DNA from: a virus
Lineage: Duplodnaviria > Heunggongvirae > Uroviricota > Caudoviricetes
Length of the DNA: 17,131 nt
Direction: 5' to 3' (one strand)
Virus record (IMG/VR): IMGVR_UViG_2698536372_000004
Numbering within the stretch: the first letter of the stretch is position 1; each line of letters opens with the position of its first letter. This document shows positions 6,836-8,429 of the stretch, in pieces. Below the pieces are notes generated by a model, which had not been told where the DNA came from, did no database searches, and was given only the letters and a program-made list of their open reading frames with translations. The translations under genes and the position numbers were made by a program.

Positions 6836-6872
6836 ACGAAAAAAATGCTGGTGGGCGCACTCCACCAGCATT
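6836..6872 (-). terminator. Intrinsic terminator within the minus-strand operon
   Basis: Perfect 11-bp stem (AATGCTGGTGG / CCACCAGCATT) with a 7-nt loop, followed in minus-strand sense by UUUUUUU. The next gene's RBS and start are only about 17 nt further on. Confidence 0.7.
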
Positions 6873-6891
6873 AAATGTGACACTGTAACTA

Positions 6892-8154
6892 TCAGCGAAC
6901 GTAAATAGTGCCGCCGTTCTCTTTTTCCCATGCATCGCTACGTGCATAGCAAACATCGAGAAGTCTTCTTGCCGCAGTTTCCTCTAAACCCAATTCAACA
7001 ACCAACTGCTCATGACGGCGGGTAACTACATCAAATAGGCTATGCAGCCCTTTATTGGCCAGTTCATCAATGAATTCCGGTTCGAACGGCAGCTCTGCCT
7101 CTGCCAACATAACCTCTTGCGCCCACTCAACTCGACGGACCAGTTCCGGGCGGCGGCTTTCCATCTCTTTACAGATCAATTCATGGAAGAACTCTACCCA
7201 ACCTTCCGGCTGGAACTCGCGGAAAATGGCCAGCGGCTGGAAGTTTGGCATCAACCATTCGTTGATTCGGATATCAATGGCATAGCCCATGTCGCAGCAG
7301 AACTGATAAGCAAAGTCCAGCTTAGAAACGATATAAGGACGCTCGTTATTGAACTCTTTAGGCGATGAGATCCCATAAGCCAGGAGGCGCGGGAAGAAGG
7401 AGATTTGCCCTAACGTCGGATGAAGTTTGCTTGCAGGGAAACGGCGCTCAGTAATGCCATACATTTCCTTCTTGAGCGTCGCAAATTTGGCATTCTCATT
7501 AACCAGCGCGGTAACCTCTGCTTTTTTATTAGCAAATGCCACGCGCGCTTCGCTTGCATCTTTAATAGTTTTTTTGAGCTGTTGGTTAAGGTCGGCGACC
7601 TGCTTACGCAGTTCCTGTCGCTCGCTTTTAGCTTTGTTATAGCGTTTCTCAAGGTTAAAAGGATCAAGTTTCATGATCTCTTTATATTGAGATTTTAGCG
7701 TTGAAATCTGTGAGTTCCGCAGTTCAACCATCGCGGTCATTTCATTGAGTTTTGTTTCCAGCTCAATGCTTATACGTTCGGCATTATCAGCACGCTGGTT
7801 GGCGTCATGCGTCGCATCGTCGATCGCGTCCTGTTGCTGGCGTTTCAAATGTTCAATTTGCAGCTGAAGCTCTTCAATTTCTTTACCCTTCAGACCGAGA
7901 TCCAACTGCATATTTTCAGCTGCATCTACCAGGGAGTTATGGCTATCAGCTTCTGCGTTATAAACATCAATAAGCTGTGCGTGAAGCATCTCCGCTGACT
8001 GAACCGCATTATCAAAAAAACGTGCTGTGAGGTCATCACAACTAACGCGGCGTTGCGCGGCCCGGATGTTCTGGATAATGGCCGGGATACCGGCATTCAG
8101 GACATCAGGGATAGATACATTTTCGATTGATTGGTTTTGTGCTGAAGTGCTCAT
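6892..8154 (-). CDS. Hypothetical 420-aa protein: N-terminal coiled coil, C-terminal globular domain of unknown function
   Basis: Residues ~40-230 are Q/E/K/L-rich with heptad character; the C-terminal ~190 aa match no motif I recognise. Start ATG at 8154 lies 1 nt after the upstream stop (TGAAATG). Confidence 0.55.
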   Translation of the reverse strand: MSTSAQNQSIENVSIPDVLNAGIPAIIQNIRAAQRRVSCDDLTARFFDNAVQSAEMLHAQLIDVYNAEADSHNSLVDAAENMQLDLGLKGKEIEELQLQIEHLKRQQQDAIDDATHDANQRADNAERISIELETKLNEMTAMVELRNSQISTLKSQYKEIMKLDPFNLEKRYNKAKSERQELRKQVADLNQQLKKTIKDASEARVAFANKKAEVTALVNENAKFATLKKEMYGITERRFPASKLHPTLGQISFFPRLLAYGISSPKEFNNERPYIVSKLDFAYQFCCDMGYAIDIRINEWLMPNFQPLAIFREFQPEGWVEFFHELICKEMESRRPELVRRVEWAQEVMLAEAELPFEPEFIDELANKGLHSLFDVVTRRHEQLVVELGLEETAARRLLDVCYARSDAWEKENGGTIYVR

Positions 8155-8155
8155 T

Positions 8156-8374
8156 TCAAAGTTCCGTATTAGCTTGTGCTTCGGTCATTTTTCCTAAGTA
8201 TGAAGGAGGAAGGACTACGCAATTTGTATCCAGTCCCTCACCTATGGCAGCCTGTAAAATTCTGGCTAAGGTGAGTCTCTTGTTGCGATACCTGGTGATG
8301 ACATGCCTGATACCGCCGGTCGGTGTAACAAAGGCGATCAGCCAGTAGTGATATTTCCGTCGGAATGGCCACAT
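8156..8374 (-). CDS. Hypothetical 72-aa protein
   Basis: ATG at 8374 with RBS AAAGGTG. It is the first gene after the minus-strand terminator at 8396..8429, and the repeat motif at 8389..8401 lies immediately upstream. Confidence 0.45.
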   Translation of the reverse strand: MWPFRRKYHYWLIAFVTPTGGIRHVITRYRNKRLTLARILQAAIGEGLDTNCVVLPPSYLGKMTEAQANTEL

Positions 8375-8388
8375 AGTGCACCTTTTGG

Positions 8389-8401
8389 ATTGCTCTAATA
8401 A
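8389..8401. repeat. 13-bp core motif, inverted copy (ATTGCTCTAATAA)
   Basis: Exact reverse complement of TTATTAGAGCAAT. With copy B it forms a perfect 13-bp inverted repeat around the terminator hairpin at 8402..8429. Confidence 0.8.
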
Positions 8402-8429
8402 AAAACGTGATGAGTGTACATCACGTTTT
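8396..8429 (-). terminator. Intrinsic terminator within the minus-strand operon
   Basis: Perfect 11-bp stem (AAAACGTGATG / CATCACGTTTT) with a 6-nt loop. In minus-strand sense it is followed by UUUUUUAUUAG. Sits between the GT-A-like gene and the 72-aa gene. Confidence 0.6.

Follow-up and report, generated by a model that had tools for sequence, protein, structure and literature searches.

The two hairpins that separate the early genes pmgQ, pmgR, pmgS and pap in the window (the whole stretch of DNA analysed, 17,131 nucleotides) were found to have the anatomy of conserved intrinsic terminators. We consider it rather probable that site 1, between pmgQ and pmgR, is a terminator with an overlapping C1-controlled promoter, PpmgR, and that site 2, between pmgS and pap, is a leaky terminator before pap, with no factor required. 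In such a model, the P1 early “pmg” region would be a chain of short transcription units, each starting at a promoter silenced by the C1 repressor in the lysogen. Site 1 would stop the transcripts leaving pmgQ, and the polymerase from a promoter anchored at the C1 operator Op86a would initiate within or past the site 1 hairpin. Transcripts from PpmgR would be devoid of all or part of the 5′ arm, so that no full hairpin could form (the leftover stem would have at most 6 bp, and this with the start at about 8424, the candidate lying furthest upstream), and would continue into pmgR-pmgS. Lying between site 2 and Op88 without its own promoter, pap would be transcribed by polymerases passing site 2, which would act as a fixed attenuator holding the pap mRNA below that of pmgS, a dedicated factor not being needed. 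The sequences, their conservation and covariation, the operators and the mRNA steps between genes are observed; the exact start sites, the act of termination at the two hairpins and the share of read-through are what we infer.

Judging by sequence comparison, the window belongs to a phage P1-like plasmid: positions 5500-9500 are 98.2% identical to phage P1 (AF234172), and the gene order pmgQ-pmgR-pmgS-pap-pmgT is the same in both. Every gene discussed (pmgQ, pmgR, pmgS and pap) is carried by the minus strand, pmgQ being the final gene of the upstream early/late unit pmgN..pmgQ; the pmgR RBS is AGGTG just 5′ of the start codon. Relatives were sought by PmgS scans of viral contigs and species genomes, where almost all matches were at least 98% identical, and the usable diverged lineages were two, namely five Salmonella plasmids and Cronobacter phage JK004 (PmgS 69% identical to that of the window). 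PmgS matches at 20-24% identity (Pantoea, Citrobacter, Vibrio) were left out as too distant for comparison. The coordinates of the features are collected in Table 1.

Table 1. Features of the pmgQ-pap region (positions in the window).
Feature	Positions	Strand	Basis and remarks
pmgQ CDS	8456..9157	-	ORF list; homologous to P1 pmgQ, AF234172 81449..82150
pmgQ stop codon TAA	8458..8456	-	ORF list
C1 operator Op86a (OpmgRa), ATTGCTCTAATAATTCC	8438..8454	-	Consensus match, P1 annotation; in gene direction
PpmgR, predicted sigma-70 promoter	8425..8453	-	P1 annotation (“predicted”), PWM scan
Site 1 hairpin, AAAACGUGAUG-UACACU-CAUCACGUUUU (read 8429..8402)	8402..8429	-	Folding, covariation; predicted terminator for transcripts from pmgQ
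Site 1 T run, TTTTTTATTA	8396..8405	-	Sequence; conserved in all relatives
C1 operator Op86b (OpmgRb)	8389..8405	+	Consensus match, P1 annotation; inverted relative to Op86a
pmgR CDS, 72 aa	8156..8374	-	ORF list, P1 annotation; PMC9024508
pmgS CDS, 420 aa, coiled-coil	6892..8154	-	ORF list, P1 annotation
Conserved motif GTTACAGTGTCAC	6877..6889	-	Just 3′ of the pmgS stop; kept in relatives
Site 2 hairpin, AAUGCUGGUGG-AGUGCGC-CCACCAGCAUU (read 6872..6844)	6844..6872	-	Folding, conservation; predicted terminator ending the pmgR-pmgS unit
Site 2 T run, 7 T (6-8 in relatives)	6839..6845	-	Sequence, relatives
pap RBS, GAGGAGGG	6823..6830	-	Sequence; AGGAGGG in JK004
pap CDS, 168 aa, TTG start at 6819	6313..6819	-	ORF list
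C1 operator Op88 (OpmgT) and PpmgT promoters	6297..6313	-	Operator match, P1 annotation, PWM scan

When the 17-kb window was searched for hairpins with a perfect stem (10 bp or more, loop 3-8 nt), only sites 1 and 2 were recovered, the mean expected by chance being 0.095 (200 dinucleotide shuffles of the window). A consensus terminator scanner, which found terminator-like matches to be mildly enriched in the window (26 vs. 17.2 ± 4.2), ranked site 2 first and missed site 1, because there an A4/U4 extension of the stem takes up part of the T run. At both sites, a stable stem-loop is formed on the transcribed strand, a U run kept in all relatives lies directly 3′ of the stem, and the whole is co-directional with the genes and placed 3′ of a stop codon. 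These features suggest that both hairpins are conserved Rho-independent terminators, at which transcription would terminate.

The site 1 hairpin starts 27 nt 3′ of the pmgQ stop codon and comprises an 11-bp stem and a 6-nt loop (−12.9 kcal/mol). Its stem consists of an 8-bp core, ACGUGAUG, plus A4/U4, and is followed by UUAUUA, which corresponds to U6 and then AUUA when counted from the core. The T run is partly within the stem and entirely within Op86b; the pmgR ATG at 8374 is located 21 nt past 8396. Among 14 distinct sequences, two pairs of the stem showed compensatory changes (G-C to A-U and A-U to G-C) and five showed one-sided G-U changes; the outer 13-bp inverted repeat around site 1, that is, the operators, was invariant in all relatives compared. 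An invariant outer repeat together with a covarying inner stem is the signature of an RNA stem flanked by protein sites. The loop reads TAnnnT, a −10-like sequence, in all three lineages (TACACT, TATCAT and TATCAT).

The protein in question would be the C1 repressor. Matches to the 17-bp asymmetric consensus of the C1 operator, ATTGCTCTAATAAATTT, number four in the window vs. 0.08 expected, and both Op86a, which is invariant in all relatives compared, and Op86b, which lies within the 5′ untranslated region of pmgR and overlaps the site 1 T run, bear three mismatches each. In the P1 record AF234172, Op86a “controls expression of pmgR and pmgS”. The stretch from Op86a to Op86b is identical to P1, and comparison with this record (Lobocka et al. 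2004, J Bacteriol 186:7032) revealed the same Op86a, Op86b and PpmgR, the only differences being a small number of substitutions in the interval from Op86b to the start of pmgR. Operators and promoters are annotated in the AF234172 stretches inspected, and no terminators. Op86a ends only 8 nt before the site 1 hairpin, and therefore transcription starts anchored at Op86a should fall within or past the hairpin. The predicted PpmgR comprises the −35 TTGCTC (8453..8448), a 17-nt spacer and the −10 TAAAAC (8430..8425); alternative −10 sequences are TATTTT (8436..8431) and the hairpin loop TACACT (8418..8413). The predicted starts at about 8424, 8418 or 8406 are all within or past the hairpin. All three Op86a-anchored candidates score above the 99.8th percentile of the window PWM scores, with weak hexamers: the −10 TAAAAC is without the final T, and its counterpart in JK004 is TGAAGC. 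The same layout, TTGCTC-N17-TAAAAC, recurs at Op88/PpmgT, where Op88 overlaps the pap stop codon and opens the next early unit. Since PpmgR transcripts could not form the full hairpin, pmgR expression would be independent of read-through. A plus-strand promoter mirrored from Op86b was also considered and rejected, the −10 position there being AGTGTA.

These data bear on an earlier note on this DNA, which described two strong intrinsic terminators inside one operon, each followed by a gene without room for a promoter. Both hairpins were confirmed on the minus (gene) strand and proved conserved. In our model, the operon gives way to short C1-controlled units, with Op86a and PpmgR at site 1, where the operator and the predicted promoter lie upstream of, or overlap, the hairpin, so that the supposed lack of room does not hold there; the earlier reading had inspected only the downstream side of site 1. 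For pap (the HAD gene) it does hold, as neither an annotated nor a conserved promoter was found at site 2.

The model can be compared with mRNA levels in published RNA-seq, which consists of two tables from one group, obtained with P1vir rather than with the element of the window; the values are gene-level fold changes vs. uninfected cells, not length-normalised, and one of the datasets is of low depth. At 10 min, the P1vir logFC values are 7.05 for pmgQ, 9.02 for pmgR, 9.99 for pmgS, 8.45 for pap and 9.72 for pmgT in one table (PMC8201110 Table S1), and 5.94, 7.96, 8.21, 5.52 and 8.93, respectively, in the other (bioRxiv 10.64898/2025.12.28.696737 Table S1). Both tables show the same 10-min pattern, up at pmgR, down at pap and up again at pmgT, with pmgR 4- to 7-fold (2.0-2.8 log2) higher than pmgQ. 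The pap mRNA is already present at this time, its level relative to pmgS ranging with the normalisation from about 0.15 to 0.85: length-normalising the logFC moves the pap/pmgS ratio from 0.15-0.35 to 0.4-0.85, and therefore the read-through fraction is not fixable from these tables. At this time point, pap mRNA below pmgS fits a leaky terminator at site 2. By 30 min, pmgQ had risen by 4.6 log2 and pmgR and pmgS by only about 1.7 (PMC8201110 table), which fits a site 1 that halts most of the late transcription arriving from upstream; pap was then near or above pmgS, depending on normalisation, and in the PMC8201110 table the pap/pmgS ratio rose about 2- to 3-fold from 10 to 30 min. The statement of the earlier note that the downstream genes need read-through can thus be kept for pap, which has no promoter that we could find and yet yields early mRNA, and has to be dropped for pmgR, which has its own operator and predicted promoter and, at 10 min, several times more mRNA than pmgQ. 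As the knockdown of pmgR itself is without phenotype, the CRISPRi/knockout data are uninformative on polarity (PMC10695390, PMC9024508).

The site 2 hairpin starts 19 nt 3′ of the pmgS stop codon; its stem comprises 11 bp and its loop 7 nt (−17.6 kcal/mol), and its T run is separated from the pap start by 19 nt. In 84 P1-group loci, the loop and the length of the T run vary, and the changes in the stem are G-U compatible. In Cronobacter phage JK004, base changes leave the stem intact, one pair being compensatory, another a wobble and a further one additional (the stems were compared by hand, as MAFFT shifted the JK004 5′ arm one column out of register), and the terminator, RBS, TTG start and pap form a conserved block. 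Neither consensus and PWM scans nor comparison with JK004 revealed a conserved promoter between pmgS and pap or overlapping site 2, and no feature is annotated in the pmgS-pap gap of P1 AF234172. A late, Lpa-dependent promoter before pap was rejected as well: the sequence TAGTTACAG, located past the pmgS stop codon, resembles the −22 element (e.g., AAGTTACTT) of the annotated late promoters, but what stands 4 nt further on, ACATTT or ACTTTT, does not look like a −10 hexamer in any of the lineages.

One might suppose instead that pap has its own weak promoter overlapping site 2, with transcription starting within the 5′ arm, at about 6863. A candidate of this kind, with the −35 TTCGCT (6899..6894), an 18-nt spacer and the −10 TTTAAT (6875..6870), has the highest PWM score in the vicinity of site 2 (7.24, 99.96th percentile of window positions); its hexamers are present in both P1 and the window, and the length-normalised pap signal is near that of pmgS. 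If it were real, the arrangement would mirror that at site 1, and pap would escape termination and might be C1-independent. However, the −10 TTTAAT has T rather than A at the second position (−11), and in sigma-70 −10 elements an A is near-invariant there. The candidate was not called by the consensus scan, its hexamers are absent in JK004 despite preservation of the terminator-pap block, and P1 bears no annotation at this place, which makes a promoter of this kind quite improbable. Read-through of site 2 is the best explanation for pap expression.

We also weighed the possibility that the hairpins are not primarily terminators and instead stabilise the RNA or direct its processing, as 3′ or 5′ end protectors or RNase III sites, or that they are protein-bound DNA palindromes, their T runs being incidental. 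The site 1 T run does belong to the operator Op86b, and the leader of the next unit contains one more conserved hairpin (6242..6264), which covaries between lineages and has no sense-strand T run; therefore, structured non-terminator leaders exist here. Against this, sites 1 and 2 display every part of a terminator, their runs of 6-8 T being kept in each relative, the changes seen on the sense strand, G-U-compatible or compensatory, are those expected of pairing in RNA and not of a sequence-specific DNA site, and mRNA drops across site 2. Altogether, we regard this explanation as very improbable and further treat both hairpins as predicted terminators.

The earlier note invoked N-type or Q-type antitermination to account for the genes downstream. 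No support for it was obtained. As the note itself had stated, no N- or Q-like gene is recognisable in the window, and none of the 21 window ORFs scanned against Pfam and PHROGs fell into such a family; nor did the product names that PGAP assigned to NZ_AP027178.1, a complete plasmid near-identical to the window, include any N- or Q-like antiterminator, keeping in mind that small, fast-evolving N-like proteins could escape Pfam, PHROGs and PGAP-name searches. The boxA patterns occur in the window at chance frequency and none lie near the promoters of the pmgR/pap-region units, no motif shared by the leaders of ref, pmgR and pap was found, Rfam gave no match near either site at E up to 1, and folding revealed no extra conserved stems upstream of site 2. 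The Q-type geometry is absent from site 1, where the predicted starts are within the hairpin, not upstream of it. Reading the C1 operator UGCUCUAAUAA as an rrn/lambda boxA was rejected, since the operators are not among the boxA matches and these patterns are at chance frequency; for Op86a this was rejected also because PpmgR transcripts would exclude it.

There are, nevertheless, observations that speak for an antitermination activity encoded by P1-type phages and opening start-proximal attenuators before ref, pmgR and pap in lytic growth. A scan of the whole near-identical complete plasmid gave 16 strong terminator-like sites, three of which (ref, pmgR and pap) lie on the sense strand directly before a start codon, so that the layout is found thrice, always before early genes. 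At ref, some 55 nt separate the hairpin from P2ref, an annotated C1-controlled promoter upstream of it, and therefore P2ref transcripts must cross the hairpin. Moreover, read-through into pap exceeds what an 11-bp stem and 7 U suggest, and the pap/pmgS ratio rises with time, as antitermination predicts. On the other side, the promoter geometry makes such an activity unnecessary at site 1, pmgS below pmgQ at 30 min argues that site 1 still terminates late, and no factor has to be invoked for a terminator of partial efficiency, leakiness being common among intrinsic terminators on their own. On balance, an antitermination activity of this kind seems to us rather unlikely, and its narrower version, an early activity in P1-type phage-plasmids that opens the terminators before these three genes, is more doubtful still.

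The finding of two terminators, made in one of the best-studied phages, is an ordinary one and largely already described, and the idea of antitermination in P1 goes back to 1988. The title of Windle, Laufer and Hays (1988, J Bacteriol 170:4881) claims attenuator-antiterminator control of P1 ref. Among these leaders, deletion analysis is reported for ref only. The ref leader of P1 carries GGCGGCC-atta-GGCCGCC plus T8, ending 5 nt before the start of this C1-controlled early gene, and shares the terminator-before-start-codon layout with site 1 and the pap leader. The predicted promoter P1ref would start within the ref hairpin, as PpmgR would at site 1. The difference lies in P2ref, whose transcripts include the hairpin in full; the operator of site 1 is just in front of its hairpin. 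A P1 antitermination activity, if true, would account for what was put forward in 1988 as “attenuator-antiterminator” behaviour of ref. In a 2023 paper, the existence of a P1 antitermination function was described as open; the sequence offers three matched terminator-before-start-codon sites (ref, pmgR and pap) in this respect.

Partial terminators are familiar from E. coli, namely T1 between rpsU and dnaG and the attenuator between rplL and rpoB. In these, the two genes are co-directional with no promoter between them, and constitutive read-through supports weaker expression of the distal one. Site 2 looks similar; the E. coli terminators were measured directly, whereas site 2 is known from gene-level RNA-seq tables. 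In the lambda N/nut and Q/qut systems and in HK022 put, terminators likewise lie between co-directional, expressed phage genes, but in contrast to lambda and HK022, no boxA/boxB-like element, N/Q homologue or put-like RNA was found here by the pattern, Pfam, PHROGs, PGAP-name and Rfam searches. Late transcription of P1, in turn, relies on the activator Lpa at separate late promoters, not on an antiterminator. At site 1, a terminator overlapped by a promoter would provide compact insulation of neighbouring early units, and may be relevant for engineering P1 or P1-like resistance plasmids.

As for the gene behind site 2, its product matches Pfam PF25109 HAD_PNKP (E = 2.2e-9), and pap is predicted to encode a stand-alone HAD phosphatase of the polynucleotide kinase/phosphatase type, 69% identical to the homologue in Cronobacter phage JK004. 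Homologues of Pap are common in T1-like and other phages. The conserved motif just 3′ of the pmgS stop (Table 1) is kept even in relatives without pap.

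Between positions 5500 and 9500, the window shares 98.2% identity with phage P1 (AF234172) and 99.8% with P1-type E. coli plasmids, and the P1 coordinate equals 90606 - w for a window position w. The predicted terminator hairpins between pmgQ and pmgR (site 1) and between pmgS and pap (site 2), together with the features around them, are those of phage P1 and are partly annotated already.

Features around the two hairpins and elsewhere in the window
Feature	Position	Strand	Description
Hairpin	16946..16967		ATGCCCGG...CCGGGCAT, two-way, terminator-like
pmgQ	8456..9157	minus	
Op86a	8438..8454		C1 repressor operator right after the pmgQ stop codon (P1 record)
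PpmgR	-10 at 8430..8425		predicted sigma-70 promoter (P1 record); -35 TTGCTC within Op86a, -10 TAAAAC touching the hairpin
Site 1 hairpin	8429..8402		AAAACGUGAUG-UACACU-CAUCACGUUUU, then UUAUUA
Op86b	8389..8405		second C1 operator, inverted, overlapping the T run (P1 record)
pmgR	8156..8374	minus	72 aa
pmgS	6892..8154	minus	420 aa
Motif	6877..6889	minus	GTTACAGTGTCAC, adjoining the pmgS stop codon
Site 2 hairpin	6872..6844		AAUGCUGGUGG-AGUGCGC-CCACCAGCAUU, seven consecutive U
pap	6313..6819	minus	168 aa, TTG start; small HAD phosphatase
HAD motif I of Pap	6756..6770	minus	residues 18-23
Leader hairpin	6242..6264		9-10 bp, past the Op88 promoters and ahead of the small ORF
Small ORF	6128..6214	minus	28 aa, MNTAFKIIMAAIYFWLFSITFGGIVAHG, good ribosome-binding site
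pmgT		minus	next gene after pap in P1 order

The gene pmgR, reported to be essential for P1 virion completion (PMC9024508), is unannotated in the RefSeq (PGAP) record of the closest complete plasmid (NZ_AP027178.1, 74948..75248; 24948..25248 in L088, the part of it used here), where its ORF is intact all the same. Downstream of pmgT (1..~5400), the window diverges from P1: its PmgT has 241 aa vs. 309 in P1, and the genes that follow are as in lambdoid accessory regions (two Ead/Ea22-like genes, a dATP/dGTP pyrophosphohydrolase-DUF551 fusion, DUF4752 and DUF1382), where P1 carries pmgU, pmgV, the upf genes, hot and lxr.

The earlier note had described terminators at both sites, each followed by a gene with no room for a promoter, and had deduced expression by terminator read-through, as in N- or Q-type antitermination. 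The hairpins themselves are real. By direct count, no other perfect hairpin in the 17 kb has a stem of 10 bp or more with a 3-8 nt loop, as compared to a mean of 0.095 in 200 dinucleotide shuffles, and their folding energies (-12.9 kcal/mol for site 1 and -17.6 kcal/mol for site 2) are typical of intrinsic terminators. A consensus terminator scanner ranked site 2 first; site 1 escaped it, since the stem there is lengthened by A4/U4 at the expense of the T run. The start codons do lie close behind, 21 nt to the ATG of pmgR and 16-19 nt to the TTG of pap, the latter preceded by a strong ribosome-binding site, GAGGAGGG.

The lack of room for a promoter does not hold at site 1, where the predicted PpmgR overlaps the hairpin. 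The P1 record places pmgR and pmgS under the control of Op86a, and the stretch spanning Op86a to Op86b shows no difference between the window and P1. The C1 operator consensus has four matches in the window vs. 0.08 expected, all four at operator positions annotated in P1. A PWM scan gave three promoter candidates anchored in Op86a, with TATTTT, TAAAAC or the hairpin loop TACACT as the -10 element, each above the 99.8th percentile of window scores; the TTGCTC-N17-TAAAAC layout recurs at the next operator, Op88, ahead of pmgT. The predicted starts (~8424, ~8418 and ~8406) all fall inside or past the hairpin, so that such transcripts would lack all or part of its 5′ arm and could not form the full terminator (a start at ~8424 would leave a stem of at most 6 bp). 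Site 1 would thus act chiefly on RNA coming from pmgQ. Judged from sequence, it is an operon boundary overlaid by a predicted promoter.

Furthermore, site 1 was compared in two informative diverged lineages, Salmonella plasmids (CP053320, CP146848; PmgS 68% identical) and Cronobacter phage JK004 (69%). Both operators are unchanged, letter for letter, in all lineages compared. The inner stem carries G-C to A-U and A-U to G-C exchanges in both lineages with the pairing kept, and JK004 has two further G-U pairs that are functional only in the sense-strand RNA. In a set of 14 distinct sequences, none of the 13 outer (operator) pairs shows a paired change and 11 of them are invariant; two of the 11 inner pairs changed on both sides and five show one-sided G-U changes. 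At the sequence level, this is the pattern expected for an RNA hairpin flanked by protein-binding sites. The loop reads TAnnnT in the three lineages (TACACT, TATCAT, TATCAT).

At site 2, the P1 record annotates nothing in the pmgS-pap gap. Across 84 P1-group loci the stem is nearly fixed, its rare changes being G-U compatible, and the variation is mostly in the loop and T-run length. JK004 retains the full block, from the hairpin with its eight T through AGGAGGG and the TTG to pap (protein 69% identical). Compared to that of P1, its stem GCUGAUGGG/CCCAUCGGC has one compensatory pair, one wobble and one extra pair. Neither pap nor the hairpin is present in the Salmonella lineage, which has an Op88-like operator ~70 nt past pmgS; the terminator and pap thus travel together. 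The top sigma-70 candidate around site 2, TTCGCT-18-TTTAAT, has a good PWM score and a start at ~6863 within the 5′ arm, but T replaces the near-invariant A of its -10 element and JK004 has not kept it. Therefore, read-through of site 2 remains the simplest path to pap expression.

In Pap itself, HAD motif I is VDIYGT in the P1 group vs. the canonical VDIDGT in JK004, a tyrosine standing in place of the second aspartate, which usually serves as acid/base catalyst; P1-type Pap may, by its sequence, be catalytically altered. The motif next to the pmgS stop codon is kept in all three lineages, even in relatives without pap and the terminator, and bears only a loose likeness to the -22 element of P1 late promoters.

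Gene-level log fold change in P1vir-infected vs. uninfected cells (two supplementary tables of one group)
Dataset	Time	pmgQ	pmgR	pmgS	pap	pmgT
PMC8201110, wild type	10 min	7.05	9.02	9.99	8.45	9.72
PMC8201110, wild type	30 min	11.66	10.81	11.70	11.23	11.66
bioRxiv 10.64898/2025.12.28.696737	10 min	5.94	7.96	8.21	5.52	8.93
bioRxiv 10.64898/2025.12.28.696737	20 min	8.08	9.36	10.04	8.08	10.84

In published RNA-seq data, whose values are not length-normalised, come in one case from a shallow dataset and concern P1vir rather than this element, the fold change goes up at pmgR, down at pap and up again at pmgT. This profile agrees with a promoter at site 1, leaky termination at site 2 and the Op88 promoter. 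From 10 to 30 min, pmgQ gained 4.6 log2 units while pmgR and pmgS gained only about 1.7, a lag that fits upstream late transcription being largely halted at site 1. The pap/pmgS ratio is 0.15-0.35 raw and 0.4-0.85 when corrected for length, and climbs 2- to 3-fold over time.

N- or Q-type antitermination found no support in the sequence: Rfam gave no family near either site at E up to 1, boxA patterns were not enriched, and neither the 21 window ORFs scanned (Pfam, PHROGs) nor the product names of 113 annotated features of NZ_AP027178.1 included an antiterminator. The hypothesis is not new: it stands in the P1 literature, with citation of the P1 genome paper and of Windle, Laufer and Hays (1988), whose title already claims "attenuator-antiterminator control" of ref, an early P1 gene. 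There, a strong terminator, GGCGGCC-atta-GGCCGCC followed by T8 (AF234172 2046..2071; 597..622 in its part L090), ends 5 nt ahead of the ATG; it is the published "attenuator" and shares the design of sites 1 and 2. The ref start codon has no visible Shine-Dalgarno sequence, and ~55 nt upstream of the terminator is P2ref, a promoter controlled by C1. Of 16 strong terminator-like sites in the 96-kb plasmid, three stand on the sense strand directly ahead of a start codon (ref, pmgR and pap), and T runs aside, their leaders have no common motif. A terminator before the start codon is thus a design that recurs in P1, for which promoter overlap at pmgR and terminator leakiness at pap are plausible explanations; we consider it unlikely that a real antitermination function of P1-type elements lies behind the three sites.

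The small ORF between Op88 and pmgT is unannotated in AF234172 and in the PGAP plasmid record and has counterparts in two relatives' loci (L002 3238..3378; L085 5443..5604). Its hydrophobic N-terminus of ~24 residues is kept in the Salmonella and Cronobacter lineages, which makes a genuine gene for a small membrane protein probable. The leader hairpin ahead of it, the third-best of the window, has no T run on the gene strand, just a preceding A run, and is terminator-like on the plus strand; the two diverged lineages carry different hairpins at this position (GGCCAC...GTGGCC and GGCCGC...GCGGCC). It may stabilise the 5′ end or terminate antisense transcription. The hairpin at the junction past the plus-strand tail gene block has a good T run on the plus strand and a poorer one on the minus strand, and is overlapped by weak Rfam sRNA matches.
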